From NCBI GenBank assembly GCA_003516025.1, contig CP023991.1, positions 270,001 to 302,000 on the forward strand: a stretch of 32,000 bases of DNA, written 5' to 3'. The position numbers were made by a program, and so were the translations under genes. Positions 1,673-30,164 of the stretch are shown here, piece by piece; within the stretch, counting starts at the first letter, position 1, and each line of letters opens with the position of its first letter. Below the pieces are notes generated by a model. It did no database searches. It was not told the DNA's origin and worked only from the letters and a program-made list of their open reading frames with translations. This DNA is from Candidatus Saccharimonadota bacterium (GTDB lineage: Bacteria > Patescibacteriota > Saccharimonadia > Saccharimonadales > UBA4665).

Positions 1673-1744
1673 GTTTCATGTGTAACTGGGTAACGGTATT
1701 TTAGTTTCTCGTTCGAAGATTTGCACATCTGTTATGATAACAGC

Positions 1745-2311: not shown

Positions 2312-2319
2312 TGCGTTCC

Positions 2320-2493: not shown

Positions 2494-2531
2494 AATGAAA
2501 GAAGCTCACCATTCGGTGGGCTTCTTTCATT
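2494..2531. other. 17-bp stem-loop of unknown role
   Basis: AATGAAAGAAGCTCACC (2494-2510), loop ATTC, GGTGGGCTTCTTTCATT (2515-2531), with one G:U pair. No flanking U-tract on either strand. Confidence 0.6.
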
Positions 2532-2626
2532 GCTCATGGTGAGTTGGACTTTGATTGCCGAACTGCGGAACGCGGTGGCAATTGGCCGTTCCTATGGCTT
2601 CAGTCATATTCTCCGTGAGATCACCA

Positions 2627-2672
2627 TCACCATTTTCGTTATACATAAAAAGCCTCTATAAGGAGGTTTTTT
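2627..2672 (+). repeat. Copy 2 of the ~48-bp terminator-like repeat
   Basis: TCACCATTTTCGTTATACATAAAAAGCCTCTATAAGGAGGTTTTTT. See copy 1 at 1625-1672. Confidence 0.7.
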
Positions 2673-2721
2673 ATCTGTTAATAGTACGATTCTCATTGTT
2701 ACTGTTTGATATAGTTGTTTC

Positions 2722-3228
2722 ATGGGTAGTAATCAGAAGCAGAAAAAAAGATCACGGGATCTAGTCAGATTATTTCTTCATCTGCCGCGATTTTATCAGA
2801 AACGTCTTACGCATAAGCGACTTGATAAAATTAAACCCGTACGTGACATATACTATTCAACTGTTTTCGCTATAGGTAGCGCGGCATTAGGCTTCTTTTC
2901 TCAATTCATAGGTGACAAAAATAAAGCGGGTTGGTTATTAGCTGTTTGCGCCATATTCATAACCCTAGCCTTAATGATGATCATATCTATTTATTATCTT
3001 CGGGTAATTCATGCTATATCATGGGACCACGTAATAGAAGAAACTAAACACATAGAAAAAATTTCAGAACTTGACACATCAAAATTACCTAGTGATGTTT
3101 TGGAATCAATCAAGTATTCATCAGATTTGATGGTATATGTGGCATATCTCGACATATTGATATTTATTACTTTGAACCTGTCACTATGCCTATATTCTTT
3201 TTTTGTAATTATCAACTTGCTCTCATAA
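2722..3228 (+). CDS. Hypothetical multi-pass membrane protein
   Basis: A 168-aa ORF with a basic N-terminus (KQKKRSRD) and about three hydrophobic segments. It is AT-rich and has no clear SD. No family was recognised. Confidence 0.4.
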   Translation: MGSNQKQKKRSRDLVRLFLHLPRFYQKRLTHKRLDKIKPVRDIYYSTVFAIGSAALGFFSQFIGDKNKAGWLLAVCAIFITLALMMIISIYYLRVIHAISWDHVIEETKHIEKISELDTSKLPSDVLESIKYSSDLMVYVAYLDILIFITLNLSLCLYSFFVIINLLS

Positions 3229-3239
3229 AAGCTTAATAG

Positions 3240-3407
3240 CTTTCAGGTGACATCGGTTACGCGAAACCGGAAGCCCGGGCCTGCCAGATTACTGCCGACA
3301 GACTAGGTGTGCGAGTGGGTAAATGCGTCTTTATTGACGACAGAGAAGAGTATTGCCAAGGCACTTTAAGGTTAGGAACGAAAGCGATCCTATATTGTGC
3401 AGATTAA
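3240..3407 (+). pseudogene. C-terminal remnant of a HAD-superfamily hydrolase, with no start codon or N-terminal motifs
   Basis: The in-frame translation LQGDIGYAKPEARACQITADRLGVRVGKCVFIDDREEYCQGTLRLGTKAILYCAD* carries HAD motif III (K-P) and motif IV (FIDD). The frame is closed by TAG at 3237-3239, and the DxD nucleophile region is absent. Confidence 0.55.
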
Positions 3408-3450
3408 CAGCTATACTGGGAGCTTAGCGCTATATTAGGCGAATATACAG

Positions 3451-3705
3451 CTAATCAATAATCTTCGACTGCTCAGTTATCCGGTAGCTGTCAAAATCGG
3501 TAATGTCAGAAATCTTGACGCGAAGGGCTTTGGCCAACTTGTCCAAGGTTTTAAGCGAGGGGTTGCGCGTGCCGTTTTCGACTCCGGAAATGTAGGTCTG
3601 GCTTAAGCCGGTAGCAATACTAAGCCTTTCCTGGGTTAGACCAGCTTCCGAGCGGAGTAATTTGAGTCGTTTGCCAAGTTTTTGAGCGGCTGATGTACGG
3701 ACCAT
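3451..3705 (-). CDS. XRE-family helix-turn-helix transcriptional regulator
   Basis: LKLLRSEAGLTQERLSIATGLSQTYISGVENGTRNPSLKTLDKLAKAL is a canonical HTH_3 (Cro/C1) pattern. Confidence 0.85.
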   Translation of the reverse strand: MVRTSAAQKLGKRLKLLRSEAGLTQERLSIATGLSQTYISGVENGTRNPSLKTLDKLAKALRVKISDITDFDSYRITEQSKIID

Positions 3706-3771
3706 TGCTTTTACGATGTCAATAAATGAACAAAAAGTCTATTAACTAAAAGTAATATTATGCTTGCTATA

Positions 3772-3829
3772 TATCCGTACTTTTGATAATAATTAAAATT
3801 ATACTTATGTATATAATTTAATACGGATA
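3772..3829. promoter_or_regulatory. AT-rich divergent control region with an 8-bp inverted repeat
   Basis: TATCCGTA (3772-3779) and TACGGATA (3822-3829) lie between the XRE gene (-) and the tailspike-like gene (+). TATAAT is at 3812-3817. On the minus strand, TATTGACAT (complement of 3716-3724) is a -35-like box for the XRE gene. Confidence 0.35.
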
Positions 3830-3842
3830 AGGCTACAAGAAT

Positions 3843-5306
3843 ATGACAACGCGACGCTTACCAATACCTGGACAAGATGACGGTACCTGGGGTGATATAC
3901 TCAACGACTTCCTGTCGGTTGAGCATAATGCCGATGGCACACTGAAAGCCTCAGGCTCGTTAGTCACAAAAATAGATGCCGGTATATTGGCTGCTGTCGC
4001 GACGAGCGGCAGCTACCATGACCTTACTGATAAACCTGCTTACGCGCCGATACGTATGATGGATGTGAAACTGTTCGGCGCGCGGGGTGATGGCGTAAGC
4101 GACGACACATCAGCTATAAACGCCGCGATTGCGGCGGCCAGTACTGGCGGCACCGTTTTCTTTCCGAACGGAACTTACGTTATTAGCGGTTCATTAATAA
4201 TTAATACCGATAATATTCGGCTTTTGGGTGTCGGTTATGGCAGCCTTATCAAAGCTGCGCCGGCGTTCCCCGCTACGGGTATACCGATGATATGGGTTAA
4301 AGGCTCCGGCGGGTCAAACTATCGGTACGGACCCGTAGTGGAGCAGTTATATATTGATGGCGGCGGCGTAGCCGGTGTCATGGGGATTCAGCTGGACTCG
4401 ACATATCATGCCCAAATCCAGCATTGCTGGATCCGCTACTGTACCGGTATTGGGCTTTACCTGAATGGTACTTCAAACGCTTACGGAGCTTATACCAATG
4501 TTACGTCGACGCAAATAACAGATGGAGGGTCAGGCAAGGGTATTACTACTAATAACCATGAACACTGCATTTTTACGGGCTGCGTTTTCGCCTGGTATAA
4601 CCTGCCCGGAGGTATTGGGGCGCAGTCAAACAGTTCTAATATGGTATTTCAAGCCTGTAAATTTGATGTCAACGATATCTCGCTTGATCTCGAATTCTGT
4701 ACGGCGAACGTCGTACAGGGATGCGATTTCGACCGCGGACGAACGAACCACTTAGTACTTAACGGCGCGCAGCAGACCCGTGTGATGGGTTGCCAGTTTT
4801 CATCCCGTGATGGTGGCGCCGCCGGCGCTGACATGGTAGCCGTCAATGGTGGCGGTTCCAGTCTCTCGAACCTTTTTGTAGGCAACGTGGCCGCTCCCGG
4901 TACAGAGTGGAACCGATTTATTCACGAGTTCGGTGGCATTGGTCCCGGTAACCAGTACATCGGTAACGATCCGGCAGATCTGGCGATAGATTTGAAAAGT
5001 CCCTGGATTGGCGCCAGCCCGCAGAGTGCTTCAGCATCGGCGACGGCCAGCGGCGGCGCGATTACGACGGCTGGCTTAGATGTCGCGCGGGTATCCCCGA
5101 CGGTCACGATCACGGGCGTTACCCTCCAACCTGGAATATACGGCGGACAAAAAGTGACGGTCGTTAATGAATCGGCGAACAGCATAACGTTCGCTGCCGC
5201 TTCTGTCTCGCATGTGGCTGATGGGACGTCCGATGTGATTGCTGCCAGCAGCGCCCGCCGGTTCGTCTGGAATTCCGGTCTGAATTTCTGGTTCCGCGAA
5301 AGCTGA
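3843..5306 (+). CDS. Tail-fibre/tailspike-like protein with a pectate-lyase-superfamily right-handed beta-helix
   Basis: The N-terminus is RLPIPGQDDGTWGDILNDFL..HNADGTLK. VATSGSYHDLTDKP is a motif common in phage tail fibres. FGARGDGVSDDTSAINAAIAAASTGGTVFFPNGTY is a Pectate_lyase_3-type start of a beta-helix, followed by Gly/Cys-rich repetitive turns. There is no signal peptide. Confidence 0.7.
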   Translation: MTTRRLPIPGQDDGTWGDILNDFLSVEHNADGTLKASGSLVTKIDAGILAAVATSGSYHDLTDKPAYAPIRMMDVKLFGARGDGVSDDTSAINAAIAAASTGGTVFFPNGTYVISGSLIINTDNIRLLGVGYGSLIKAAPAFPATGIPMIWVKGSGGSNYRYGPVVEQLYIDGGGVAGVMGIQLDSTYHAQIQHCWIRYCTGIGLYLNGTSNAYGAYTNVTSTQITDGGSGKGITTNNHEHCIFTGCVFAWYNLPGGIGAQSNSSNMVFQACKFDVNDISLDLEFCTANVVQGCDFDRGRTNHLVLNGAQQTRVMGCQFSSRDGGAAGADMVAVNGGGSSLSNLFVGNVAAPGTEWNRFIHEFGGIGPGNQYIGNDPADLAIDLKSPWIGASPQSASASATASGGAITTAGLDVARVSPTVTITGVTLQPGIYGGQKVTVVNESANSITFAAASVSHVADGTSDVIAASSARRFVWNSGLNFWFRES

Positions 5307-5372
5307 ATGGCAGCGCCCGGCAGTATGCTCGAAAACTGGTCGTCACGGCCATAAGCGGTTAGAATAGTATGT

Positions 5373-5954
5373 ATGTCGTTCCATAAGATCAACAACCTGC
5401 TTCTGGCGTTGATCATCCTCGTTAATGTGTATGTCATCGCCGCGCCTCTGGCGCCGCAAGCGATATATTGGTGGCAAAGCAACCACAGCGCTAAAAGACA
5501 AGAGCTGACCGAGAAAGTGCGGTCCAAAACAGCCGAGCCGCAAAAAACCATGGCGAATGGCATTATCATCCCATCTATGCTGCTTAACAGGCCAATTCTG
5601 GAAGGGTCCATTGCGGACACCTACAAAATCCTTGATCAGGGTATCTGGCGCTGGCCGGGTGGCAGCACGCCGGACAAGGGTGGTAATACTGTGCTCGTCG
5701 GCCACCGGTTTACCTATACTCAGCCACAGGGCGTGTTCTATTTTCTTAATAAAGTGCGGTTAGGCGACCAAATTGGGCTTTGGTGGGATAACAAAAAATA
5801 CGTGTATACGGTAAATGAAATAAAAGAAGTGCCGCCAACGGAAGTCAGCATCCAGGCGCCAACGGAAGACGCCCGCCTGACGATATATACCTGTACGCCG
5901 TTGTGGATGCCGAAGAACCGACTGGTAGTTATCGCGGAATTGGAGGCTTCATGA
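5373..5954 (+). CDS. Sortase family transpeptidase
   Basis: An N-terminal TM anchor, catalytic His in LVGHR, Cys in LTIYTCTP (TLxTC-type) and Arg in NRLVVIA. Confidence 0.85.
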   Translation: MSFHKINNLLLALIILVNVYVIAAPLAPQAIYWWQSNHSAKRQELTEKVRSKTAEPQKTMANGIIIPSMLLNRPILEGSIADTYKILDQGIWRWPGGSTPDKGGNTVLVGHRFTYTQPQGVFYFLNKVRLGDQIGLWWDNKKYVYTVNEIKEVPPTEVSIQAPTEDARLTIYTCTPLWMPKNRLVVIAELEAS

Positions 5955-6061
5955 GTGAAAAGGTACGATTCGTAGTGCTGCTCGCGATACTGGCCCTCAG
6001 TATCGGCTTAGCGGTATTTATTAATTCGTCAGCTGGCCACGTACTGATAACCAACGGCTAA
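5951..6061 (+). CDS. 36-aa single-TM peptide translationally coupled to the sortase; not in the ORF track
   Basis: Its ATG overlaps the sortase TGA (ATGA at 5951-5954). Translation is MSEKVRFVVLLAILALSIGLAVFINSSAGHVLITNG. The terminator at 6065-6099 follows directly. Confidence 0.4.
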   Translation: MSEKVRFVVLLAILALSIGLAVFINSSAGHVLITNG

Positions 6062-6064
6062 ATT

Positions 6065-6099
6065 AAAAAAACCGGCTGTACGAAACAACCGGTTTTTTT
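6065..6099. terminator. Bidirectional rho-independent terminator
   Basis: AAAAAAACCGGCTGT...ACAACCGGTTTTTTT. The stem has an A-tract on its 5' side and a T-tract on its 3' side. It lies between convergent genes. Confidence 0.75.
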
Positions 6100-6114
6100 A
6101 GTAGTCCAGGCCGT

Positions 6115-6375
6115 TTAGTTGGTGCTGGCCTTCTTGCGCCGGCCGAAGCGAGTAGCTACAGCAACGGCAATAAGTAAGCAGGCAAAGCTTGCGCCGGCCA
6201 GCAAATCAACACCGGTATTCGTCAGGATATTACCGTTGGTGGCTGTTGCGCCGCCGTCAGCAACTGTTCCGGTGCCGGTTGGTGCCGCGGTTGTCGTGCC
6301 ATTTTGGTACGTACTGGTATTGTATGTACCCTCGCCGTAAGCTGCTGAAAAATGGTAATACTGTGAATAAGTCAT
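6115..6375 (-). CDS. 86-aa Thr/Gly-rich protein with an LPXTG-like C-terminal sorting signal
   Basis: The C-terminus is NILTNTG, VDLLAGASFACLLIAVAVATRF, GRRKKASTN, that is, motif plus hydrophobic span plus basic tail. It sits convergent to the sortase. The N-terminus MTYSQYYHFSAAYGEG has no signal peptide. Confidence 0.55.
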   Translation of the reverse strand: MTYSQYYHFSAAYGEGTYNTSTYQNGTTTAAPTGTGTVADGGATATNGNILTNTGVDLLAGASFACLLIAVAVATRFGRRKKASTN

Positions 6376-6458
6376 ATTTGCAATTTTTCCTTTACTAATA
6401 GTATAGCGGTTATGCTATGATAGTAAAGACCTAAATGTAAACGAGGGGAACAAGTATA

Positions 6459-6662
6459 ATGTTTAGTCAATTCGCAATTCTGGATCTGGGAACTCCACAG
6501 TTGCTGCTTATTTTAGCAATCGCCCTATTATTGTTTGGTGGAAAGAAACTTCCAGAGCTCTCTCGCAGCCTTGGTGAATCTATGAAAGAGATTCGCAAGG
6601 GTATGAGCGACAATGATCATTCGGTGGCTAAAAGTGAAGAACGCAAGAGCGAAAACGCTTAA
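6459..6662 (+). CDS. tatA: Twin-arginine translocase subunit TatA/E
   Basis: LLLILAIALLLFGGKKLPELSRSLGESMKEIRKG is the canonical TatA TM plus amphipathic helix. Confidence 0.85.
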   Translation: MFSQFAILDLGTPQLLLILAIALLLFGGKKLPELSRSLGESMKEIRKGMSDNDHSVAKSEERKSENA

Positions 6663-7734
6663 CCGTCCAACTACTCAAGCAGCACCATTCCTGGCTCACT
6701 TAAACGAACTAAAGCGGCGGCTATTCTATATAGTCGCCTCTGTATTTGTGGGCGGCGGCGTGGCTTACGCGTTCGAGCATCACATTGTTGATGTTCTGTT
6801 AAAGCCAGCGGGTGACCAGCAGTTTATCTATACCTCCGTCGGTGGCGGCATGGACTTTCTGTTCAAGGTGGCAATTTATGCCGGCGTGATCGCCAGTATT
6901 CCGGTGATTGTCTATCAGGTGCTCAAATTTATAGAACCGGTAGTGGCCGTTGATTCGAACCGCTTTATCGCCAAAATTACGGTTATTTCGGCATTATTGG
7001 CCTTCGCGGGCATCCTGTTTGGCTACTTTATGGGTTTGCCGAATGCCTTGCATTTTCTACTGCATCAGTTCACGACAGTACAGATTAAGCCGCTGGTGAC
7101 TATCCAGGCCTACATGTCGTTCGTAATGATGTATATGGTTGGATCGGCCCTGTTGCTGCAAGCGCCGCTACTCCTGATATTTATTAACCGCATTAAACCC
7201 CTTAAACCTCAAAAATTAATGGCGGCCAACCGGTGGGTTATCCTGATTGCTTTTATCGGTGCCTTTATTATGAACCCCACACCGAATCTTATTGCCCAGT
7301 GTTTTGTAGCAGTACCAATTATCCTGGCCTGGTTTGTTGGCGTAGGATTGGTCTGGTTTATAAATAAGAAGAGCCTGCGGCCTTCGCACGTCATGGAACT
7401 TATCGAAAAGGATCTGGCAACGCAACAGGAGCGGCTACGGAAATTGGAGCAGGCGATTTCTCTTACAACTATCGCCCAACCGGAACTGGTGCCGGCTTTT
7501 GAACCGTACAGCGCGGCATTTGAAAAACCATCCACTACGCAGATACAAGCTAAGGCCGCGCGGCCTAAAGTTGTTACTGAAGCTCAAGTTCAACCTGACG
7601 TGTCGCGGCAGGCACTGCGGACCGCCGTCGCGGATGTGGCTCCGGCGGTCGTGCAAGGGCAGGGGACGAACGCGGTGCGCCAGGCATATGCTATAGCTGG
7701 CGGCCGGCAAATCCGACGGCGCGTAATTTCCTGA
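6613..7734 (+). CDS. tatC: Twin-arginine translocase subunit TatC with a ~110-aa C-terminal extension
   Basis: The N-terminal motif is HLNELKRRLFY, with about six TM segments. The start is uncertain: ATG 6613 overlaps tatA, and GTG 6634 is an alternative. The tail after ~aa 255 is hydrophilic and Ala/Gln/Pro-rich. Confidence 0.8.
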   Translation: MIIRWLKVKNARAKTLNRPTTQAAPFLAHLNELKRRLFYIVASVFVGGGVAYAFEHHIVDVLLKPAGDQQFIYTSVGGGMDFLFKVAIYAGVIASIPVIVYQVLKFIEPVVAVDSNRFIAKITVISALLAFAGILFGYFMGLPNALHFLLHQFTTVQIKPLVTIQAYMSFVMMYMVGSALLLQAPLLLIFINRIKPLKPQKLMAANRWVILIAFIGAFIMNPTPNLIAQCFVAVPIILAWFVGVGLVWFINKKSLRPSHVMELIEKDLATQQERLRKLEQAISLTTIAQPELVPAFEPYSAAFEKPSTTQIQAKAARPKVVTEAQVQPDVSRQALRTAVADVAPAVVQGQGTNAVRQAYAIAGGRQIRRRVIS

Positions 7735-12425: not shown

Positions 12426-13517
12426 ATGGCATCACGATTACCAACCCCCGGCTCTGATGACGGCACCTGGGGCAATATACTCAATGACTTTTTGAATCAG
12501 GCACATAACACCGACGGATCACTGAAACCGCTCAGTCAAGCTCAGATTACTAACCTGACTGCTGATTTGGCGGCCAAAGTAGGCAATACGGATCTCGATG
12601 CTAAAACGGCGGCACTGGTTAGCAATGGGGCTTCGACCACTAATGATGCTCTTAAGGCGGCCGCTGTCGCCGCCGTGGAACAGGCTAGTGAAGTTACTCC
12701 GGCCGGGGTGTGGGACTTTGCCGTTGCTCCAACGGTGAGCGGCTCAGCTCTTACCGGCAATGAGGGCCCTCAGGGCCCTCCGGGACTTGTGTGGCGTGCG
12801 GCGTGGAATACTAACGCTTCTTACGCGGCTGATGACGCCATCAACTATAATGGACGTGCTTTTATCGCGCTACAGGCATCTACTGGAATTACACCTCCTG
12901 CTACTGCCGTAAGTACGGCGTACTGGGGTTTGTTGGCTGACAGGGGTGAACAGGGTCCGGCGGGTACGGGTGCTGCTGGAGTTATCTCACCGAGTGACCT
13001 GGCCCTCAAGGCGTGGGTTTGTGATCCGGTGCTGCTTAATGCCGGTACTCGAACTACTTTTGTCGCTGGGCAATTGAATGGGACACTTATCAACCTCCCA
13101 GCCGATACTATTACTGGCGCGAGCTTCTTTATTGGAGTCGCCGGCGTTGCTCTTACTAACTGTTACTTGGCTGTACTCGACGCCGCAACAGGGAACCGAC
13201 TCGCAGTGACGGCAGATATTTCCAGCACGCTCACGTCAACCGGGGTGAAGCGTGTAGCTTTTAGTGCTCCGTTCGCTGCTATGGGTGGACCCGCCTACGT
13301 CGTAATGCTGATTGGCGGTGGAACTACTATGCCGCAGGCAGTCCGACTGCCTAACACCGACAGCGGTCTCAGCAATGTACGTGGACCCGGCCAGCCGGCA
13401 GGCCGTATTCGTACCGGGCAAATCACTACAAATACCGGCCTCACTGCAGTCCCTGTCACGAACGACATGTCTGGTAACACCGCACAGGCATCGGGCCTGT
13501 GGGTGGGCCTCGATTAA
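12426..13517 (+). CDS. Tail-fibre-like protein with collagen-like triplets
   Basis: The N-terminus RLPTPGSDDGTWGNILNDFLNQAHNTDGSLK is ~70% identical to that of the 3843 gene. LSQAQITNLTADLAAKV is tail-fibre-like. There are short G-x-y runs (GPQGPPG, GEQGPAGTGAAG). There is no signal peptide. Confidence 0.6.
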   Translation: MASRLPTPGSDDGTWGNILNDFLNQAHNTDGSLKPLSQAQITNLTADLAAKVGNTDLDAKTAALVSNGASTTNDALKAAAVAAVEQASEVTPAGVWDFAVAPTVSGSALTGNEGPQGPPGLVWRAAWNTNASYAADDAINYNGRAFIALQASTGITPPATAVSTAYWGLLADRGEQGPAGTGAAGVISPSDLALKAWVCDPVLLNAGTRTTFVAGQLNGTLINLPADTITGASFFIGVAGVALTNCYLAVLDAATGNRLAVTADISSTLTSTGVKRVAFSAPFAAMGGPAYVVMLIGGGTTMPQAVRLPNTDSGLSNVRGPGQPAGRIRTGQITTNTGLTAVPVTNDMSGNTAQASGLWVGLD

Positions 13518-19417: not shown

Positions 19418-19822
19418 GGGGCTGAATTTTAAGCTCGACGTTGGACTTTATCGGTTATATTTGCAGGTCGCTTGCCAGCGCGGATTTTTCCCAATAGGCA
19501 AACCATTTTAGATGCAAAATCTAAAGTTAGCGACATGGTTGCAAGCATCGATAACATCCTTGCTCAGCGCCAGTTCGCACTAGCAGCCTAATTATTTAGA
19601 CTGCCGTGCTCGACGAGACATCAGATATCAGAAAAGCGCGCCAAATTCATCTGGTTGCCCGGGGCTCCTATCCATAGTGCCCGTTAAGATTTAGGATTGC
19701 TGCCACGGAATGTTTGTCATTTTAAATAGCCGTGGTTTAAGATCAAAAAACTGACTACACCTGTAGACGATATGCCAAAGATAAACCGGCGGACGCGGGG
19801 GCGGTACCCGCCAGCTCCACCA
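19418..19822 (+). ncRNA. ssrA: tmRNA (SsrA)
   Basis: The 5' end GGGGCTGAATTTTAAGCTCGACG pairs with the 3' end CAGCTCCACCA, giving an acceptor stem with a G3:U pair and terminal ACCA. There is a T-arm-like GCGGG/CCCGC. An internal open frame ends ...DNILAQRQFALAA-TAA. Confidence 0.85.
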
Positions 19823-19856: not shown

Positions 19857-19890
19857 TTTAGTGCGGCATAGATGGTGGTATACTTGCCGG

Positions 19891-20445
19891 ATGAAGCCGA
19901 GATTTGTTTTTGTGCATGGTATTGGTGCGACTACCTGGGAAAACCCTTGGGCCTCTTGGCTTAAGCAAAAGTTGGATACGGCCGGCTATGATACTCATTT
20001 TCAGACAATGCCCGACCCACAGCAAGCCCGCAAGCATATTTGGTTACCATATCTTGAAAACGAGGTTAAAGTCGGCTCAAGCGACGTTATCATTGGCTAC
20101 TCATCCGGTGCCGTAGCGGCCATGCGATATGCGGAAAACCATAAGATATTGGGATCGGTCCTAATTTCTCCAAGCTACACAGATCTCGGCGACGCCGACG
20201 AACAGGCGAGCGGCTACTTCGATGAGCTGTGGAACTGGAAGGCAATTAAGTCCAATCAGAAAAAGATTGCCTTGGTGTTTGGAGACGATGATCCGTATAT
20301 TCCACAGCAGGATTTTGCCTACATAGCAGTGCATATCGGCCCTGAAAAGCTGAAAATACCGGGCGGCGGCCACTTTAATGAGCGGCAGGACTTTCACGAA
20401 GTACTCAGCTATATCGAACGAACGTATCCGCTCTTACGGGCGTAG
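19891..20445 (+). CDS. Alpha/beta serine hydrolase, RBBP9/YdeN-like; second family member in the window
   Basis: MKPRFVFVHG, the nucleophile elbow GYSSG, DDDPYIP, and the late His in GGGHF. Size is ~184 aa. ATG 19891 is preferred over the track start at 19861. Confidence 0.65.
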   Translation: MKPRFVFVHGIGATTWENPWASWLKQKLDTAGYDTHFQTMPDPQQARKHIWLPYLENEVKVGSSDVIIGYSSGAVAAMRYAENHKILGSVLISPSYTDLGDADEQASGYFDELWNWKAIKSNQKKIALVFGDDDPYIPQQDFAYIAVHIGPEKLKIPGGGHFNERQDFHEVLSYIERTYPLLRA

Positions 20446-22365: not shown

Positions 22366-23544
22366 ATGAGTGGATTCCGTGATTTTCGCCATAAGCGTCA
22401 GCGGCCAGTTGCCGAGACTGTCCAGCAGTACTATCAGCCGCCGGGCAGGCGGACGGTTTGGCTGCGGCGCTACGGGCTGATTGTTGCCGGTGTCCTGGCA
22501 GTTGGCTTAGCCGCGGCATTTTTATGGTGGCATGCGAACAGTACGGCTACTACCGGCGCAGATAAAAAAGATCAGATTACCGAAACAAATCCGCTGGCCA
22601 ACAGGAATTTATACGTTGATCCGAATTCCAACGCGGCTACCCAGGCCCGGCTATGGAGCAATATAGATCCGGCGAACGCTACTTTGATGTATAAGCTGGC
22701 AGATCAACCCAGCTCGCATTGGTTCAGTAACGCGGTAAGCTACGACGAAGTCCATAGTTACGTACAGGCGGCAAATGACGTCGAACAGTTGCCGGTAACA
22801 GTGGCCTACTTCATTCCTTACCGTGACTGTATGCAATATTCCTCGGGCGGCGCTGCGGACCAGGGAGCCTATTATGACTACATTAACACCTATGCCAGCG
22901 CGATCGGGCATTTGAATGCGGTGGTTATCCTAGAGCCGGACGCGCTGGTACATATGCACGCCCAGTCTCATACCGGCAAGACATGCTTAGGTGACAGCGA
23001 ACGCCGCATGTACACGACACTGCTCAATTACGCGGTTGACCGTTTCAAATCCCTGCCCAATACCACGGTGTATATCGATGCCGGTAACAGTGGCTGGTCG
23101 ACTGACGCGGATACTATTTCAGCACTCTTGCGGGATGTAAATGTGGCACGGGCCGACGGTTTCAGCCTGAACGTTTCCAACTTCCGTATGACGGATGAAA
23201 CTGTGCAGCTTGGCAATCGCATCTCGGATAAACTGGCAGGTAAGCATTATGTAATCGATACCTCGCGTAATGGCTTAGGACCCTACGACAACCGCGCCAA
23301 TCCGGCATATAACTGGTGTAATCCCCCGGGTCGGGCACTGGGGCATTATCCAACGATCACCACCGGTGTTAAAAATGTCGACGCGTACTTGTACATCAAA
23401 AATATCGGTGAGTCTGATGGCACCGACCCGGACGCTGCCAAATGCTTTGGTGGACCGGCTGCCGGCACCTGGTGGCCGGAGTACGCCGCCGGCTTAGTGG
23501 CTCGCTGGCCGCAGAATCTTCAGTTTGATGGCAGGAGCCGGTAA
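22366..23544 (+). CDS. Glycoside hydrolase family 6 (endoglucanase/cellobiohydrolase-type), membrane-anchored
   Basis: GH6 motifs seen: YFIPYRDC, ILEPDAL, YIDAGNSGW, LNVSNF, VIDTSRNG, WCNPPGRALG and DAYLYIKNIGESDG. N-terminal TM is GLIVAGVLAVGLAAAFLWW. Confidence 0.8.
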   Translation: MSGFRDFRHKRQRPVAETVQQYYQPPGRRTVWLRRYGLIVAGVLAVGLAAAFLWWHANSTATTGADKKDQITETNPLANRNLYVDPNSNAATQARLWSNIDPANATLMYKLADQPSSHWFSNAVSYDEVHSYVQAANDVEQLPVTVAYFIPYRDCMQYSSGGAADQGAYYDYINTYASAIGHLNAVVILEPDALVHMHAQSHTGKTCLGDSERRMYTTLLNYAVDRFKSLPNTTVYIDAGNSGWSTDADTISALLRDVNVARADGFSLNVSNFRMTDETVQLGNRISDKLAGKHYVIDTSRNGLGPYDNRANPAYNWCNPPGRALGHYPTITTGVKNVDAYLYIKNIGESDGTDPDAAKCFGGPAAGTWWPEYAAGLVARWPQNLQFDGRSR

Positions 23545-23546
23545 CA

Positions 23547-23963
23547 GTGAGACCTGACCGCAAAAAGGCTGTACTCGTAGCTGTGGATCTCCTGGTCGTT
23601 CTGGCGCTAGCCGGTACAGTAACGCATGTGGTGCTATCGCGCCGACAGACAACTAAGGATGCGACCACATGTGCTGGAACGGCACGAACCCACAAGTTGC
23701 AATTGGAAAACGGCCAGTTTTCGCAGCCGCAGCTTACAGTGGCGCGCTGCGATACGGTTACTATTATGAATTCAGACAAGCAGGCCTATCTCCTTAACTT
23801 TGGCGATTATGACAGGCACCAGGATTATCCGGGCTTTACGCCGCAGGTACAGGTCCAGCATGAAGCGGTCGCCTTTACGGCTTTGCAAAAAGGGAAATAC
23901 GAGCTGCACGACCACATTGGCAATAACGCGCATCTTGCATTAACCGTAGAGTCAAAACGCTAG
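23547..23963 (+). CDS. Membrane-anchored cupredoxin-like protein lacking the canonical Cys/Met ligand pattern
   Basis: GTG 23547 has AGGAG 8 nt upstream and lies 2 nt after the GH6 stop. There is an N-terminal TM. F-x-x-P-x-L-T-V-x-x-x-D-T-V-T-I-x-N and the late G-K-Y-E-L-H-D-H fit the cupredoxin_1 topology by eye, but H/C/H/M ligands are not evident. Confidence 0.4.
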   Translation: MRPDRKKAVLVAVDLLVVLALAGTVTHVVLSRRQTTKDATTCAGTARTHKLQLENGQFSQPQLTVARCDTVTIMNSDKQAYLLNFGDYDRHQDYPGFTPQVQVQHEAVAFTALQKGKYELHDHIGNNAHLALTVESKR

Positions 23964-23965
23964 GC

Positions 23966-25528
23966 CTAGTCGTTAATGTGTACCCAGTAGGCTTCTGAAG
24001 GCACGTTTTTGGTATTAGTCACGAATGCCATATACCAACCAGCTGGCACGATGCCAGCGTTATCAGGTACGGTGATGCTGACGCCGTCAGCTGTTTTCGT
24101 TATGGCCAGGTCAATGGAACGTTGTTCGACGTCGGTGACATGAGTAACCGCGCTCGGGCGGAGCAGCTTAGCGGTCTTTATGTCGGCGGGGTTGGAAGTT
24201 TTTAGACTGCTAGTACCGCCGCGGTTCAGCTCAGTAGAGCCACCGTGTATAACGGGGCGGCTGCCGTAAAACAGGTAGGCCGGCGAGTAGATTTCAATCC
24301 TCATTTCGAACGAGTTATCGATTGGGTTGGAACCGAAGGTCGCGACCCGCCCGTCAGGGAGCAAAATGGCCTCGGAATGATAGTCGCGTCCAACGGTCGG
24401 GCTGGCGGCCTTGGTAAAGGTGTTCGTGTCAGGATGGTAAATGCTGGCTTGCAGGACGTCTTTATCACGGTAGTCGGCTGAGCCGCCAGTTTGTAAAACA
24501 GTGTCATCCGGCAGTACGACGACGCCCGGATAGCGCAGGCCTTGCTGGAGGTCCGGCCCGTCCTGGTAGGTTGGATTGGCTTGTTTGAGGTCAACAATAG
24601 CGGTACGGCGGGTGGTTACAGATGAGTCGCCGACGCCGCCCCCGCCTAACAGCATAACTTTCTGACTTTGGACCGGAGGCAGCAGTACGCTGGAACTTGT
24701 CTCGACGACGTCAGGATCACGCAGGCCGTATACGTTCTGAAAACTATTGTCAGCCAGGTTCCATAAACCGGGCTGGCGGCCAAGTTCAGGCGAACCGTAA
24801 CCATCAGTGGAACCGCTATAGAATAAACGGCCGTCACCGGTCAGGAACAGCGCCGGATAGGTTGGCAGGTAGCGGTTAAGATCTGGACGGTCCGTCCATT
24901 GCTTGGTTGTTGGGTCGTATATTTCTGTCTGTCCATTCAGCAGCTTTCCTTTTTCATCAAGACCGGATGAGGCAAGGATTTTGCCATCAGTCAGGCCGAC
25001 CAGTGTCGGATACCAGCGGGCGTAATTAAGTGGATCGACCTTTTCGTAGCGCTCCGTATCGGGATTGAATTCATACGAATCCTTGAGCCCGTAATAATCT
25101 TTTTTGGGTGAGGCAGTTAAATCTTCGTATGCCGCGGTACCGCCGGCGACCAGCAGGTTGCCATTAGCGAGGAAGGCATGGCCGGCGCAGAAAACATCCC
25201 AGGGAGTTGGTACTTCGGTGAAATCGTTAGTTTTCGGATCCCAAATGACCGTACGGAACGTGCCGCCATCAAATGACTTCTGGTCATTGCCAGAACCGGC
25301 AATCAGTAAAACTTTGCCGGTTTTGAGCAGGGCGGCATGAATCGAACGAACCGGGTTCTTACTGCTAAGGACGTCCCACTGGCCGTACTGGGCGGCCACT
25401 TCGGGGCGGTGCGTATAGTAATGCTGTAATTTAGCGTTCACTGGTTCGGCTAAAGCATTGCCGTTGATGACCAGTATGGCTAGAGTTGCCAGTGTATAGT
25501 TTAACCGCCGGTTGCGTAGTAATTTCAT
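23966..25528 (-). CDS. Galactose oxidase/glyoxal oxidase-like (GlxA-like) Kelch beta-propeller protein with a DUF1929-type C-terminal domain
   Basis: Signal/anchor MKLLRNRRLNYTLATLAILVINGNALA, the FCAGHAF motif (Cys in the position of the radical-forming Cys of this family), and repeated propeller blades. The C-terminus has RPSAVTHVTDVEQRSIDL and VPAGWYMAFV. The ATG overlaps the upstream GT2 stop (ATGA). Confidence 0.8.
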   Translation of the reverse strand: MKLLRNRRLNYTLATLAILVINGNALAEPVNAKLQHYYTHRPEVAAQYGQWDVLSSKNPVRSIHAALLKTGKVLLIAGSGNDQKSFDGGTFRTVIWDPKTNDFTEVPTPWDVFCAGHAFLANGNLLVAGGTAAYEDLTASPKKDYYGLKDSYEFNPDTERYEKVDPLNYARWYPTLVGLTDGKILASSGLDEKGKLLNGQTEIYDPTTKQWTDRPDLNRYLPTYPALFLTGDGRLFYSGSTDGYGSPELGRQPGLWNLADNSFQNVYGLRDPDVVETSSSVLLPPVQSQKVMLLGGGGVGDSSVTTRRTAIVDLKQANPTYQDGPDLQQGLRYPGVVVLPDDTVLQTGGSADYRDKDVLQASIYHPDTNTFTKAASPTVGRDYHSEAILLPDGRVATFGSNPIDNSFEMRIEIYSPAYLFYGSRPVIHGGSTELNRGGTSSLKTSNPADIKTAKLLRPSAVTHVTDVEQRSIDLAITKTADGVSITVPDNAGIVPAGWYMAFVTNTKNVPSEAYWVHIND

Positions 25529-27270
25529 ATGACCTCCTTAACCTCTGCTAAGTGTCTGGACGTGAATATATGTAAAAGCCGTTGCCTTGCCTGTTTCAGG
25601 TGTCCGGACTGCCATACGAGCAGCGGTGACAGGCAGAGCAGCAGATTAACAACCGACCATACAATGATTACCGGGTAGGCGTGGCCGCTCAGGAGACTGT
25701 AGGCAAAGAAAACGACGATAAGCGAGGACCACATGAGATGTTTACGAAAAGTGAGCAGCCGGTCGGCTGAAGTCGAATCGCCCTTGGCTGTAACGACGAA
25801 CTTCGGGGAGCGGCGCAACAGGGTCGAGATAAAAGCCGTAACATATATCGGCGCTGCGATCATGCTAAAGAACATTCCGGCGGCGCCTATGGTGCCGGCT
25901 TTTTCGTGGGGACTAACGTTAAAGCGCCGCAGCCATCCGTATAGCAGGATCTGCGCTATGGTAGCGTCCACGTACAGGGCAAGCCAGATGTCGCCAGTTA
26001 TTTGTAAACCAGTCTGGCCGAGCAACAGGTATACCATGCTGGCAAACATGCCGAAAATCCAGCTGATCGCGACCGACGGGTAGAAAAAGATGAGTGAAAT
26101 GTAGTGTAATTTTGATGCCAGCGGCAGGCGGCGCAAGATAGGAAAAAAGCGTGTAACCAGCACTTCGTTAGCGCCTCGTGACCAGCGTAACTGCTGTGAG
26201 AAAAAGTCTGTCCAGGAAGACGGGCCTTCTCCGACCGCTACGACATCGGGCGTGTATACGGAGCGCCAGTTATTTCCAGTTTCAGGATTGCGGTTGGCAT
26301 GCAGAGCCATGCCGGTTAACATATCTTCGGTGATTGAATCCTGGAAACCGCCAACCGCTTTCCAGGCGCTCACCCGATACGCATGATTGGTGCCGACGAA
26401 CATAGCGCTCCGGTAAGCGTTGCCGCCGCGCTGAATAGTTGCCTGAAAAGGGTACGCCTGAGACTCGGCACCCTTGGTAACCGGATTATTGAAATTACCG
26501 TACACCTGCGGGCCGACGACAAATGCGACATCCGGATCCTGGAAGTATCCTAAGAAACGCTCGGCGAAGTTAGCGTGCGGTACATGGTCGGTATCTACTG
26601 ATAAAACATAGTCATAATTGTCACCATGAGCGTCGATCCAGGCATTATGGTTACCGTGCTTAGTACGGGCTTTGAAGGTACCGGATATAGTGTTCCAGTA
26701 TGAAAAACCTTTTCGGCTGAAGTGTTTAACGCCCATCTGTTGGCAGGCTGCTTTAATTTCCGGGTCGTTGCCTTCGTCCAGCAGCCAGACGTCAATGGGA
26801 CCGGCGTAATTAATATCGAGCGCATGCCGCAGGGTTTTCTCGGCCAATTCCCATGGTTCCTTGCCGGGTACTATAGTGGTCGTAAAAGCAACGCGCATGC
26901 CAGGCTCCGGCTGTACAGGGCGCGGATCTTTAGCAAGTAACGTCGACAGGCACAGGCTGGCGACGTTAAACAGGCGGAGACCCTCAATGACGGCAATGCC
27001 GCACAGAATAAAAATAACGCCTGCTTTGGCTGGTCCGCTTAAGTAGGTGAAATTAATATGTGACGGTAAAAACAGCCAAATAAGGAATGAAATTTGAAAG
27101 GCAAGGTTAGCCGCAATAAGTACAAGGGCCGTACAGACGTTTCTGCCGCGCAGCACAGATTTGTATTGAACACGGTAACCTGGCTGCGGCCGGCTTAATA
27201 TGCTGCCGGATAACTGGCTAAAGCGTGGGTAGTCGTATGGTGTGGTGGTCGGTGGCGGCGTGGCGGGCAT
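25525..27270 (-). CDS. Processive family-2 glycosyltransferase, cellulose-synthase-like (CslA-like)
   Basis: Motifs seen: LLDEGND, SVDTDH (DxD), ITEDMLTG (TED) and QQLRWSRG (QxxRW). Two N-terminal and about five C-terminal TM segments. No PilZ-like C-terminus was noticed. Confidence 0.85.
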   Translation of the reverse strand: MPATPPPTTTPYDYPRFSQLSGSILSRPQPGYRVQYKSVLRGRNVCTALVLIAANLAFQISFLIWLFLPSHINFTYLSGPAKAGVIFILCGIAVIEGLRLFNVASLCLSTLLAKDPRPVQPEPGMRVAFTTTIVPGKEPWELAEKTLRHALDINYAGPIDVWLLDEGNDPEIKAACQQMGVKHFSRKGFSYWNTISGTFKARTKHGNHNAWIDAHGDNYDYVLSVDTDHVPHANFAERFLGYFQDPDVAFVVGPQVYGNFNNPVTKGAESQAYPFQATIQRGGNAYRSAMFVGTNHAYRVSAWKAVGGFQDSITEDMLTGMALHANRNPETGNNWRSVYTPDVVAVGEGPSSWTDFFSQQLRWSRGANEVLVTRFFPILRRLPLASKLHYISLIFFYPSVAISWIFGMFASMVYLLLGQTGLQITGDIWLALYVDATIAQILLYGWLRRFNVSPHEKAGTIGAAGMFFSMIAAPIYVTAFISTLLRRSPKFVVTAKGDSTSADRLLTFRKHLMWSSLIVVFFAYSLLSGHAYPVIIVWSVVNLLLCLSPLLVWQSGHLKQARQRLLHIFTSRHLAEVKEVI

Positions 27271-27348
27271 GTGGCTGAATTCTTATCGTGATTATGTTAC
27301 TAACGGGCCCACCCTGGAATATGAACAGTATACATTCCAGCTTGCCGT

Positions 27349-28341
27349 TTACCTGTTGTAACTAAGTAAAACGGACTGCGCTATGGCCTGCTGGCCGGCA
27401 GCGGTAGGGTGTAGTGGCTGGGAATCCTGTATGCCCTGGATCCAGGAGTCGGTCGAGCACACATCATGGCCGGTAAAGTCCACGGGGGCAAAACGTACGA
27501 ACGGGTAATAGCTTGCGACTTGCTGGATAGTGCTGTTGAGCGAATTAACCTCACCGGTTATCCAAGCCACTTCGGCACTGGTTATGCGTCCGCCGAGTGT
27601 CTGGGTGCAACTGGAGGAGGCGGGGTTGTAGTAGCCGGTATATATCATCGTCGGTGGCGTACCGCCAGAGCGTAACTGAATGCTGGTAAATAGTGCGAAC
27701 AGTTTACCCTGAAGAGCCAGTAAATATCCTTCGGCGAGCTTCTTTGCCGGAACGGTCGCACAGTCACGGTAGTAACAATTCAGAATTAGTTCTTGCCAGT
27801 GCGCGTCATTAGCACCGGCGGTAATAGTAATAAGCTGCGGGGTGCCGCTGGCGTATGCTCTGCCTAACTGAGCAGAAGGATTAGGGCCGTCGACGCGCTG
27901 CTGGGTGATAAGGTCGCCGGCTGTCGCGCCGCTGCAAGCCAGATGAATGAGGGGTAACTGAATGGCCGCTGCAACGGCGTACGGGTAAGCTTCCTGAGTA
28001 CGGCCACATCGTGTCTCCTCTGACGGTACGGTGGAAACTGTAGGTAAACCGATTCCGGCCGCTACAGAATCACCGAGGGCAACGTAAGAGCCGGCTGTGG
28101 TTATTGGTGCGGGTTGAGGTGTGGCCGCCGGTGTCTGAGGCTGCTCCTGCGCCCGGGAAGAGCTGGAAAAGGGGTTGCTGAAATTAAAATTAACTCCGGA
28201 CCACAAGCCTGACCATATCAGGTCGGAAACCGTGGGGTCGGTATTCGCCGCGGAAGTTTGTGCGGCGGCATGCTGTGCAGGAACCATACCGGTGAGTGCT
28301 AAAACAGCCGCCGATACCAATGCAATCCCAAGCTTTCTCAT
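27349..28341 (-). CDS. Secreted SGNH/GDSL-family hydrolase (esterase)
   Basis: Signal peptide MRKLGIALVSAAVLALTGMVPAQHAAA, block I YVALGDSVAAG, block III ITAGANDA, and block V D-S-Q-P-L-H-P. ATG 28341 is preferred over the track's TTG 28353. Confidence 0.8.
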   Translation of the reverse strand: MRKLGIALVSAAVLALTGMVPAQHAAAQTSAANTDPTVSDLIWSGLWSGVNFNFSNPFSSSSRAQEQPQTPAATPQPAPITTAGSYVALGDSVAAGIGLPTVSTVPSEETRCGRTQEAYPYAVAAAIQLPLIHLACSGATAGDLITQQRVDGPNPSAQLGRAYASGTPQLITITAGANDAHWQELILNCYYRDCATVPAKKLAEGYLLALQGKLFALFTSIQLRSGGTPPTMIYTGYYNPASSSCTQTLGGRITSAEVAWITGEVNSLNSTIQQVASYYPFVRFAPVDFTGHDVCSTDSWIQGIQDSQPLHPTAAGQQAIAQSVLLSYNR

Positions 28342-28451
28342 ACATGCCCCCAATCGTGTCTTGCTGTAAGCATAACCCCGAGTCGTGGTAGCGGATAGTG
28401 AGATATTTCACATCGCACGGTGAGTTAATAGATTTGGTACTATATGTTGTA

Positions 28452-28619: not shown

Positions 28620-28683
28620 ACATAGCCAGTTTCTACCGGCAATAAGTCGGCTATAATTGCTTCACGATGAAAGTAGAAGTTAC

Positions 28684-29733
28684 ATGAGCTGGTTTCGCCG
28701 CCGCCCGGCGATAATTGTGAAACCTGAAACCATCCGCGGGGTGAACCTTGGCGGTTGGCTGGTGCTTGAAAAGTGGATGACCCCGGAAATCTTCCGCGGT
28801 TTGGCTACAGACGAGTATTCATTATGTGAGCGGGCCGACGAATCGGTGCGCGCTAAACTTACTACACACCGCGACACATTTATAACGAAAGATGACTTTA
28901 TCTGGCTGGCTGACCACGGCGTAAGCGCCGTTCGTCTGCCAATCGGCTACTGGGTATTTGGTGACGCCGATCCATATCTGCCGACGATAGAATACGTCGA
29001 CAAAGCGTTTGACTGGGCTGACGCTACGGGTATTAAAATTCTGCTTGATATGCATGGTGCCCCCGCTTCGCAAAATGGCAAGGATCACAGCGGTCAGATT
29101 GGAACAGCCGGCTGGCATACCAGCGACGTTCACGTCATTAAGACCTTAGGGGTACTACTCGAACTAACCCGCCGCTACAAGAAACGGGACAGTTTCCTTG
29201 GTATGGAACTCATGAACGAGCCTGCCAGCAACCGGTCGACCCGCCGGGTACTGCGCCGTTATTATAAGGCGGCCTATCGAATGATTCGAGCCGAATGCGG
29301 CAACAGCCCCTGGGTAGTTATTAATGATGGCTACGACGCCAAACACTGGCGCCGCAAACTGCGCGGCCGGCGATATACCAATGTATATATTGATACTCAC
29401 CAATATCAGTTGTTTAGTGACAAAGACAAACAGCTAAACATTGATGGTCATATCGCAAAAACGACCAAGGAGATTCCTAAAGAACTGGCTACATTACGTA
29501 AACACCATCCGGTGATTGTTGGCGAGTGGAGCCTTGCTCTGGACCCCGGTTCACTTCAGGATCTGGATGCCGCCGGTCTTGACGCTGCTAAACGGGCTTA
29601 TGCTGCCGCACAGCTACTGGCCTATCAAAAAACCGCTGCCTGGTTTTACTGGTCATATAAAACCGGCAAACAGAACGACTGGAATTTCCGCTACTGCGTG
29701 GAACAGGGTTGGCTACCTTCAGAAATAAAATAA
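28684..29733 (+). CDS. Glycoside hydrolase family 5 (exo-beta-1,3-glucanase/cellulase-type)
   Basis: IRGVNLGGWLVLEKWMTPEIF, the acid/base motif MELMNEP and the nucleophile motif VGEWS. There is no signal peptide. ATG 28684 is preferred over the track's TTG 28657. Confidence 0.85.
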   Translation: MSWFRRRPAIIVKPETIRGVNLGGWLVLEKWMTPEIFRGLATDEYSLCERADESVRAKLTTHRDTFITKDDFIWLADHGVSAVRLPIGYWVFGDADPYLPTIEYVDKAFDWADATGIKILLDMHGAPASQNGKDHSGQIGTAGWHTSDVHVIKTLGVLLELTRRYKKRDSFLGMELMNEPASNRSTRRVLRRYYKAAYRMIRAECGNSPWVVINDGYDAKHWRRKLRGRRYTNVYIDTHQYQLFSDKDKQLNIDGHIAKTTKEIPKELATLRKHHPVIVGEWSLALDPGSLQDLDAAGLDAAKRAYAAAQLLAYQKTAAWFYWSYKTGKQNDWNFRYCVEQGWLPSEIK

Positions 29734-29777: not shown

Positions 29778-30164
29778 TTAGGCAGCTACTGGAGTGTGGC
29801 GTTCTTCAGCTGGGAAGATGAAGCCAAAGTACAGGAACGCTAAGGTAAGCGCAACGTGCAAGATGTTGTCGGCCAAGTCAACGTGGAAGAGGCCAAGAAC
29901 ACTGCCGTCGGTACCGACGATGAAACCGATAACAGTTACCAAAGCGTATACGACCGCCATGATTTGGAATGCCAGCTTAGAATAGCGGACAGTTTGTGAT
30001 GCAGCCAGGAATGCTAAACCAGATACAATGTGTACCAAGTTATGAACTCCGTCGACCCGGAAAATACCGAGAAGCTGACTTTCGTTAGTGAGGCCAGGAA
30101 TAAATCCTGCGATACCGATAATCAGGAATACAATTCCTGTAGCGAGCGCTGCTTTTTTTAACAT
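29778..30164 (-). CDS. DUF4383-like small membrane protein
   Basis: Four TM segments with a duplicated F-x-V-D-x-x-x-N-x-x-H pattern (FRVDGVHNLVH and FHVDLADNILH), as in the DUF4383 family. Confidence 0.7.
   Translation of the reverse strand: MLKKAALATGIVFLIIGIAGFIPGLTNESQLLGIFRVDGVHNLVHIVSGLAFLAASQTVRYSKLAFQIMAVVYALVTVIGFIVGTDGSVLGLFHVDLADNILHVALTLAFLYFGFIFPAEERHTPVAA

Follow-up and report, generated by a model that had tools for sequence, protein, structure and literature searches.

A likely CslA-GlxA-CslZ-type glycan cassette with an added cupredoxin-like gene in a Saccharimonadales genome

A window of 32,000 nucleotides from a Candidatus Saccharimonadota bacterium (the whole stretch analysed, positions 270,001 to 302,000 of contig CP023991.1, assembly GCA_003516025.1) contains a gene cassette that, on sequence comparison, is clearly homologous to the actinobacterial CslA-GlxA-CslZ system. 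We consider it likely that this is a four-gene cassette for an extracellular, cellulose-like beta-1,4-glucan, shared with Actinomycetota and extended by a lineage-specific candidate copper-handling subunit. The homology, the catalytic and ligand residues, the folds, the synteny and the lineage distribution are directly supported, and the cassette as such has solid support. The CslA-GlxA-CslZ type is known; new here are the host phylum, a short GlxA, a glycoside hydrolase of family 6 (GH6) anchored by a transmembrane (TM) helix, and a previously undescribed cupredoxin-like gene beside a copper oxidase. To our knowledge, accounts of CslA-GlxA treat it as a cellulose synthase confined to streptomycetes and a small number of other filamentous actinobacteria, and full-text literature searches found no paper linking Saccharibacteria to glxA or cellulose synthase.

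The listing of open reading frames (ORFs) in the window places a cslA-glxA pair on the minus strand, converging on a GH6 and cupredoxin-like pair on the plus strand:

22366-23544, plus strand: GH6 glucanase, CslZ-like, 392 residues (Pfam Glyco_hydro_6, E-value 5e-60)
23533-23549, plus strand: coupling junction from GH6 to the cupredoxin-like gene (AGGAG at 23533-23537, TAA at 23542-23544, GTG at 23547-23549)
23547-23963, plus strand: cupredoxin-like ORF, 138 residues, GTG start (Pfam Cupredoxin_1, sub-threshold)
23961-23968, both strands: convergent stops of the cupredoxin-like gene (TAG on the plus strand) and glxA (CTA on the plus strand, which is TAG on the minus strand), 2 nucleotides apart
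23966-25528, minus strand: GlxA-like radical copper oxidase, short form, 520 residues (Pfam Kelch, Glyoxal_oxid_N and GO-like_E_set, the former DUF1929, E-value 2e-21)
25525-25528, minus strand: overlap of the cslA stop and glxA start, ATGA (read from the sequence)
25533-25539, minus strand: Shine-Dalgarno sequence AAGGAGG ahead of the cslA/glxA overlap (read from the sequence)
25525-27270, minus strand: CslA-like processive glycosyltransferase of family 2 (GT2), 581 residues (Pfam Glyco_trans_2_3 and Cellulose_synt)

An earlier reading made from the letters alone (the sequence-only reading) had claimed five ORFs here, these four and a neighbouring SGNH esterase, and all five are present in the ORF listing with the same coordinates. 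It had also noted an ATGA overlap of the GT2 stop and the oxidase start; the minus strand across this junction, AAGGAGGTCATATGA, confirms a 4-nucleotide stop/start overlap with a Shine-Dalgarno sequence ahead of it, and glxA, immediately downstream of cslA, is predicted to be coupled to it. On the other strand, 2 nucleotides separate the GH6 stop TAA from the GTG start of the cupredoxin-like gene, an arrangement that predicts translational coupling of these two genes as well, and this tightly spaced pair converges on the synthase and oxidase genes as that reading had described. ORF coordinates show the same 4-nucleotide cslA/glxA overlap at four of the five related Saccharimonadales loci (L002, L003, L004 and L028) and at a Frankia locus (L027); in L012, it was not seen in maximal-ORF coordinates. 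The spacing between the cupredoxin-like gene and glxA is similarly tight in relatives (0-30 nucleotides). A terminator scan found no site at the cupredoxin-like/glxA junction, and its sites were no commoner than in shuffled sequences. With domain E-values reaching 1e-60 and 1e-157, these gene assignments are not to be put down to chance.

The synthase carries the processive motif set (D, DxD, TED and QxxRW) that had been recognized by eye, at D165, D226-x-D228 (with H229), T314-E-D316 and Q359-x-x-R-W363, together with a gating-loop motif F491-x-V-T-x-K496. Residues 99-546 align with the BcsA structures 4HG6 and 5EJ1 over both the catalytic and the membrane regions (E-value 1e-24). The protein has multiple TM helices and ends at residue 581, shortly past the last of them; no PilZ domain was found in it by Pfam, and no BcsB was found in the window by Pfam scans of the ORFs. 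Its full-length identity to actinobacterial CslA is 48-54%, with 48-49% to the Streptomyces gene upstream of glxA and 50-54% to its closest relatives beyond Saccharimonadales, which are found in Frankia, Pseudonocardia, Actinoplanes and Streptomyces. In comparison, its scores against the NCBIfam models were far below the cutoffs: 110 bits for BcsA (TIGR03030, cutoff 699), 33 bits for PgaC (cutoff 422), and 21 bits for NodC (cutoff 550). The GT2 thus sides with CslA and not with BcsA, PgaC or NodC, in keeping with its earlier assignment.

The oxidase matches Streptomyces lividans GlxA (Protein Data Bank (PDB) entry 4UNM) with an E-value of 3.7e-157, compared with ~1e-28 for fungal galactose oxidases. 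Its FCAGH motif lies at residues 113-117 and, with the GO-like_E_set match, upholds its earlier description as a Kelch/galactose-oxidase-like protein with a DUF1929-type C-terminus. The AlphaFold model (predicted local distance difference test, pLDDT, 90.4) shows an N-terminal helix (2-39), a seven-bladed Kelch propeller, and a C-terminal E-set sandwich, and Foldseek aligns it to 4UNM with a query TM-score (TMq) of 0.88. The sequence match to 4UNM consists of two stretches, jumping ~90 chain residues (~134-222). Counted along this alignment, C114, W172, Y173, Y383, H384, and H463 stand opposite C121, W288, Y289, Y501, H502, and H589 of GlxA. We take GlxA W288, Y289, Y501, H502, and H589 to be its copper-radical site (cross-link Tyr, axial Tyr, two His, and stacking Trp). 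GlxA C121 is the cross-link residue (PMC4736821). None of the six active-site residues varies among 35 short-form homologues, and the Cys/Tyr/Tyr/His/His site on which the sequence-only reading had staked its identification is therefore kept, along with the stacking Trp. Homologues of ~520-535 residues lack Pfam PF21110, whereas the ~640-residue proteins of Streptomyces and Kitasatospora carry it. Export of the GlxA-like protein by the twin-arginine (Tat) pathway was considered and dropped, as the N-terminal RR is not conserved in the related locus L036. Short GlxA-like oxidases that are 39-50% identical also occur in Acidimicrobiia (L010, L011, L014-L022, L087, L093, L094, and others); no GT2 (CslA) or GH6 neighbour of these genes was found, and their loci were used only as an outgroup.

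The best PDB match of the GH6 protein is Cel6 of Mycobacterium tuberculosis (1UOZ, E-value 1e-59), and PYRD154C, the catalytic-acid motif of the window protein, lines up with PHRDC. The protein has an N-terminal TM anchor, and its gene lies on the strand opposite to glxA, with the cupredoxin-like gene alone separating the two. In L036, the GH6 bears a lipobox-like LSAC.

We searched for the window genes by tblastn in 25 genome loci, scanned species representatives (among which the window's own genome is not included), collected 80 further loci in a metagenome scan with a GlxA alignment, and compared the ORFs of six Saccharimonadales loci all-against-all. By tblastn, all four Saccharimonadales relatives have cslA, glxA, and then the cupredoxin-like gene and GH6 on the opposite strand. 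Seven Streptomyces-type loci have cslA (48-49% identity), glxA (52-57%), and a GH6 convergent on glxA that is 41-44% identical to that of the window; the cupredoxin-like gene was not found in those seven loci by tblastn. Exactly four genes (cslA, glxA, the cupredoxin-like gene, and GH6) are common to all six Saccharimonadales loci, whose flanks otherwise differ. The neighbourhood is thus conserved in relatives, and of the five genes whose synteny the sequence-only reading had wanted followed, these four stay together and the SGNH gene does not. In neighbour-joining trees, which carry no support values and whose rooting, by choice or midpoint, is arbitrary, the GlxA proteins of Saccharimonadia (~47 clusters, 55-80% identical to that of the window) form one clade that is sister to the Frankia short forms plus the Streptomycetales long forms, and the CslA proteins of the known Saccharimonadales loci form a clade without any named actinobacterium. 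Given these limits, we take from the trees no more than that the cassette has a single, coherent and old lineage in Saccharimonadia.

Each of the four cassette genes has its nearest relatives in metagenome-assembled genomes (MAGs) of Candidatus Saccharimonadales/Saccharimonadia, and the housekeeping genes beyond GH6 are syntenic with a Saccharimonadales MAG (L002), with identities of 46-66% for UvrD/PcrA, 44% for a DUF348-G5 protein, and 57% for KsgA. We therefore assign the host backbone, from its gene content, to Saccharimonadales (Patescibacteria/TM7), with a genome of ~1 Mb, and not to an actinobacterium; the earlier guess of a small-genome host unlike Streptomyces was right. Identical GlxA-like, CslA-like, and GH6 proteins are recorded on contigs of 1,005,782 and 1,005,352 bp and on an independent Joint Genome Institute (JGI) contig, and a cupredoxin-like protein of the same 90%-identity cluster is recorded on the 1,005,782-bp and JGI contigs. 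Within the cassette, the GC fraction is 0.52-0.55, and in its surroundings it is 0.49-0.56, so the cassette is not a compositional island.

The cupredoxin-like protein matches Pfam Cupredoxin_1 with an E-value of 5e-4 and 20.4 bits, under the gathering cutoff of 27. Its AlphaFold 2 model (pLDDT 90.1) has a TM helix (4-36) and an 8-strand sandwich, which Foldseek matched with probability 1.0 to amicyanin, pseudoazurin, CuA domains, FtrB, the EfeO N-domain, and the copper-bound Cupredoxin_1 protein 4HCF, reaching a target TM-score (TMt) of up to 0.75 for amicyanin and pseudoazurin. At the sequence level, no relation of the family to any solved structure was found. An exhaustive profile search yielded 968 clusters at E<=1e-3, all of 125-165 residues save one fusion, and the sole named member of the family is from Candidatus Saccharibacteria. 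In the family alignment, C42, C68, N75, G86, H91, H121, and H123 are invariant down to 20-25% identity, and D69, Y94, G96, G116, and D122 are nearly so. In the model, H91 lies just past strand 4, and H121-D122-H123 stand at the end of strand 7, where the loop leading to strand 8 begins, so that these residues would occupy the topological places of the His and Cys...His ligands of blue copper proteins. The C-terminal ligand region has no type-1 Cys or Met ligands, and H121-D122-H123 and an invariant A128 are found instead; the protein therefore has the beta-sandwich fold of a type-1 (blue) cupredoxin but not its His-Cys-His-Met ligand set. Replacement of Cys by Asp at cupredoxin-fold copper sites is documented for FtrB and for azurin C112D (PMC11966278). 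That the gene is a spurious GTG ORF was ruled out by its conservation at 27-61% identity, the invariant residues, the Shine-Dalgarno sequence, and the pLDDT of 90. In the public JGI annotation of the identical contig it is missing (L001 11566-11982, corresponding to window 23547-23963), and a 53-residue ORF is called on the opposite strand instead; for this reason, the family is probably under-annotated.

With the family profile, the cupredoxin-like gene was found in every one of the 10 loci with a GlxA of 58% or more identity to that of the window (the Saccharimonadia GlxA clade) and in none of ~95 actinobacterial-type loci. It adjoins glxA in three layouts: convergent and coupled to GH6 (the layout of the window); immediately behind glxA on its strand, yielding a cslA-glxA-cupredoxin operon (L036, 3166-8057); and kept though no GH6 follows (L041 and L043; L041 3193-7842). 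In L041 and L043, glxA seems to be split in two ORFs, possibly by a frameshift or a sequencing error. Additionally, distant family members lie directly upstream of cyoA-cyoB-cyoC-cyoD-heme O synthase operons on two Saccharibacteria-type contigs (L029 6001-11227 and L035 189-1546), where the cupredoxin-like proteins are 26% and the CyoA proteins 50% identical to each other. This double link to glxA and cyo suggests a parallel with the dual service of Sco to GlxA and cytochrome oxidase. These contexts favour a copper-delivery or copper-redox role for the protein, which we would put at close to an even chance.

Other neighbours of the family were also observed. A DUF4383 domain is fused N-terminally to a cupredoxin-like domain of the same family in another organism (P0218; L032 5001-5729), in L030 (4190-5073) a DUF4383-like gene and a family member are divergent neighbours, and the window encodes a DUF4383 membrane protein (29778-30164, minus strand) 6 kb from the cassette; DUF4383 and the cupredoxin-like family may be functionally linked. 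A PF06821 serine hydrolase gene directly adjoins the family member in L030, and two paralogous PF06821 serine hydrolases are encoded in the window (1721-2311 and 19861-20445, both on the plus strand).

In the mechanism that we propose, the CslA-like GT2 would polymerise a UDP-sugar, most likely UDP-glucose, and thread the chain through its own membrane channel, yielding what by analogy would be a beta-1,4-glucan. The translationally coupled and membrane-anchored GlxA-like copper radical oxidase would be its obligatory extracytoplasmic partner, as in S. lividans, and the two would be expected to form a complex; in Streptomyces, CslA and GlxA make cellulose in vitro and CslA activity requires GlxA (PMC11022532). 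The membrane-anchored GH6 would trim the glycan and/or open the wall to let the polymer through to the surface, and CslZ is known to aid glycan deposition (PMC9040799). Maturation of Streptomyces GlxA needs the copper chaperone Sco, which serves cytochrome oxidase too, and the redox helper DtpA besides (PMC4736821). The cupredoxin-like protein would bind copper via His91, His121 (Asp122), and His123 and would hand it to GlxA, or keep the GlxA copper in the right redox state; its job would be that of Sco and DtpA, and it may be a functional analogue of Sco. The polymer could then serve in attachment to a host cell. Saccharibacteria live attached to Actinomycetota, which makes the cassette biologically suggestive. 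A broader scenario, which we find doubtful on present evidence, is that environmental Saccharibacteria inherited or captured the CslA-GlxA machinery for host attachment or self-protection, with a novel membrane-tethered cupredoxin-fold His3 copper chaperone that would metallate GlxA and the CuB of the quinol oxidase in place of Sco and Cox11.

Several points weigh against this interpretation. The beta-barrel domain 2 of GlxA (PF21110; residues 143-260 in S. lividans, PMC11022532) is absent from the window oxidase, and because it is missing, the score against the NCBIfam GlxA equivalog NF052501 falls below the cutoff (706 bits compared with 800). We therefore regard the protein as a GlxA homologue of shorter architecture and not as a canonical GlxA, so that the GlxA-type label of the sequence-only reading stands as to the copper site and fails as to the full architecture. 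Streptomyces GlxA truncated of much of its extracellular part lowers CslA activity (PMC11022532); with domain 2 missing, a CslA-GlxA complex encoded in the window may therefore behave unlike the Streptomyces complex. CslZ is promiscuous, cleaving cellulose, chitin, and peptidoglycan (PMC9040799), so a GH6 cannot by itself tell which polymer is made. For the cupredoxin-like family, four of the seven non-GlxA contexts (L030, L032, L033, and L034, the last of just 906 bp) have no metal-related neighbour, and the single metal link of L031 is an Nramp transporter gene two genes away. The limits of the trees given above count here as well.

The cassette could also be as described with a cupredoxin-like protein that is not a chaperone but a redox partner, a metal-free structural subunit or a glycan guide, an alternative we judge unlikely. 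As a redox partner, the protein would carry single electrons, either to (re)activate the Cu-radical oxidase and the quinol oxidase or to take up electrons from them. A cupredoxin fold is typical of electron carriers, the gene adjoins those of two redox enzymes (GlxA and cyo), several family members stand in contexts without a metal link, and the need of Streptomyces GlxA for DtpA besides Sco (PMC4736821) shows that a redox helper can take part in maturation. However, the Cys and Met ligands for fast electron transfer are absent, with the H-D-H motif and the invariant Ala in their place, and it would be unusual for a sandwich of purely structural function to keep three His and two Cys invariant. 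A bo3-type quinol oxidase, moreover, draws its electrons from quinol and not from a soluble carrier. As to the polymer, we think it quite improbable that the GT2 makes another beta-linked product (chitin-like, mixed or modified glucan) for envelope building or protection rather than adhesion. All BcsA glucan-binding and gating motifs are conserved, the PgaC and NodC scores are negligible, and the nearest homologue to have been characterised produces cellulose in vitro from UDP-glucose (PMC11022532), although the in vivo product is unsettled even in Streptomyces (PMC11022532), CslZ is promiscuous (PMC9040799), and the GT2 is only ~48% identical to Streptomyces CslA. We thus prefer a glucan cassette with a candidate copper-handling subunit. 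Two genes next to cslA were weighed as further members:

27349-28353, minus strand: SGNH hydrolase, secreted (Pfam Lipase_GDSL_2, E-value 1e-15)
28657-29733, plus strand: GH5 "Cellulase" (Pfam)

The SGNH gene lies 78 nucleotides upstream of cslA on the same strand, with the GH5 gene divergent beside it, a placement that would suit a five- or six-gene unit for, e.g., an acylated glycan. This is very improbable, since neither gene turned up in the 5-8 kb around the cassette of those relatives whose flanks were searched, and the upstream neighbours vary among loci (a histidine kinase in L028, for example). The SGNH protein, with motifs GDS96 and H315, has its closest solved relatives in Streptomyces phospholipase A1 (4HYQ, E-value 3e-21) and Streptomyces rimosus lipase (5MAL), and it resembles these enzymes rather than a carbohydrate esterase. 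With their linkage not conserved, SGNH and GH5 were ruled out as module members, and SGNH is probably a mere neighbour; the sequence-only reading was correct in calling it secreted and directly upstream on the synthase strand, but not in counting it as a component. That actinobacterial DNA entered a Saccharibacteria genome here through mis-assembly or mis-binning is less probable still to our mind, even though the nearest named relatives of its three main genes outside the clade are Actinomycetota. Such contamination is effectively refuted by the identical proteins on two ~1 Mb contigs and the independent JGI contig, the uniform GC, and the synteny of the flanking housekeeping genes with the Saccharimonadales MAG. 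In the neighbour-joining trees, ~45 clusters of the cassette genes group together, apart from every named member of Actinomycetota, and the linked cupredoxin-like family is otherwise found only in Saccharibacteria-type contexts.

In an organism thought to be dependent on host lipids, the SGNH protein could serve lipid scavenging rather than glycan chemistry. The GH5 has no obvious signal peptide. Just past the window end, the same contig encodes a trehalase and a polysaccharide lyase (L001 833-4019); L003 likewise has a trehalase upstream of its cassette. Within the window, positions 1-4000 have a GC of ~0.40 compared with ~0.52 elsewhere and contain two ORFs without a Pfam match as well as a PF06821 serine hydrolase. 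Positions 3843-7734 encode a beta-helix protein resembling pectate lyases or phage depolymerases, a sortase, and TatC. A 363-residue protein (12426-13517, plus strand) with a weak CBM_5_12 match (E-value 4e-4) is followed by a 393-residue ORF without a Pfam match, and a full-length tmRNA gene (19418-19822, plus strand; Rfam RF00023, 61 bits) lies between ksgA and a serine-hydrolase gene.

A streamlined and conserved cassette in a clade of ultra-small episymbionts provides a concrete candidate for a surface polymer where the biology of attachment is poorly understood. GlxA domain 2 appears dispensable in three lineages (Saccharimonadia, Frankia, and Acidimicrobiia), and the short forms offer a natural minimal GlxA for studying why a glycosyltransferase needs a copper oxidase. 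The cupredoxin-like family, with ~970 sequence clusters of unannotated small membrane proteins that are sometimes missed by gene callers, is a possible new copper-handling factor, and as such would be linked to two different copper enzymes.

Compared with known systems, the cassette resembles BcsA-BcsB-BcsZ in combining a processive GT2 that has the same catalytic and gating motifs with a non-catalytic membrane-anchored partner and a dedicated glucanase (PMC11022532). It differs in lacking PilZ, in having a copper oxidase and not BcsB as the partner, and in having a GH6 and not a GH8 glucanase, and the sequence similarity is remote. The cupredoxin-like protein resembles Sco (SCO1/SenC) in being small, tethered outside the membrane, and encoded beside GlxA and a heme-copper oxidase (PMC4736821), a resemblance that comes from genomic context; it has neither the thioredoxin fold nor the CxxxC motif and is therefore not a Sco homologue. 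With FtrB it shares a cupredoxin fold having His/Asp in place of the Cys/Met ligands (PMC11966278), which here would form a candidate metal site.

The closest parallels are actinobacterial. In Streptomyces, cslA and glxA form an operon, the GH6 gene cslZ faces the opposite way, and GlxA has copper delivery of its own (PMC9040799, PMC4736821), as the sequence-only reading had stated, and its view that the window holds an analogous set of genes for glycan synthesis, oxidation, and trimming is supported: the GT2 groups with CslA, the copper site is intact, and relatives keep the neighbourhood. Shared with the Streptomyces loci (S. lividans SLI_3187-3189 and S. coelicolor SCO2836-2838) are the gene order and orientation, the overlap or coupling of cslA to glxA, the convergent GH6, all GT2 motifs, the GlxA copper-site residues, and the membrane anchoring of GlxA. 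The window differs in its patescibacterial host with a ~1 Mb genome, in a GlxA without domain 2 (PF21110), whether by loss or by ancestral absence, in a GH6 anchored by a TM helix and not by a lipobox, and in the added cupredoxin-like gene between glxA and GH6. Neighbours of the lpmP, stlP or SCO2835 type were not found when the window ORFs were scanned with Pfam. Frankia differs from the window in that its GH6 genes are duplicated and on the same strand, its CslA has a long N-terminal extension (766 residues), and its copper gene encodes a thioredoxin-fold SCO1/SenC and not a cupredoxin-fold protein. In Frankia, sco adjoins the cslA-glxA cluster (PMC4736821), and we found Sco within 3.3 kb downstream of the cluster in Frankia L027 and also in L037 and L085. 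Frankia and Protofrankia share with the window a short-form GlxA without domain 2 (~530 residues, 53-56% identical), the 4-nucleotide cslA/glxA overlap, GH6 genes downstream, and a copper-handling gene, which in the window is the candidate cupredoxin-like gene, at the cluster end.

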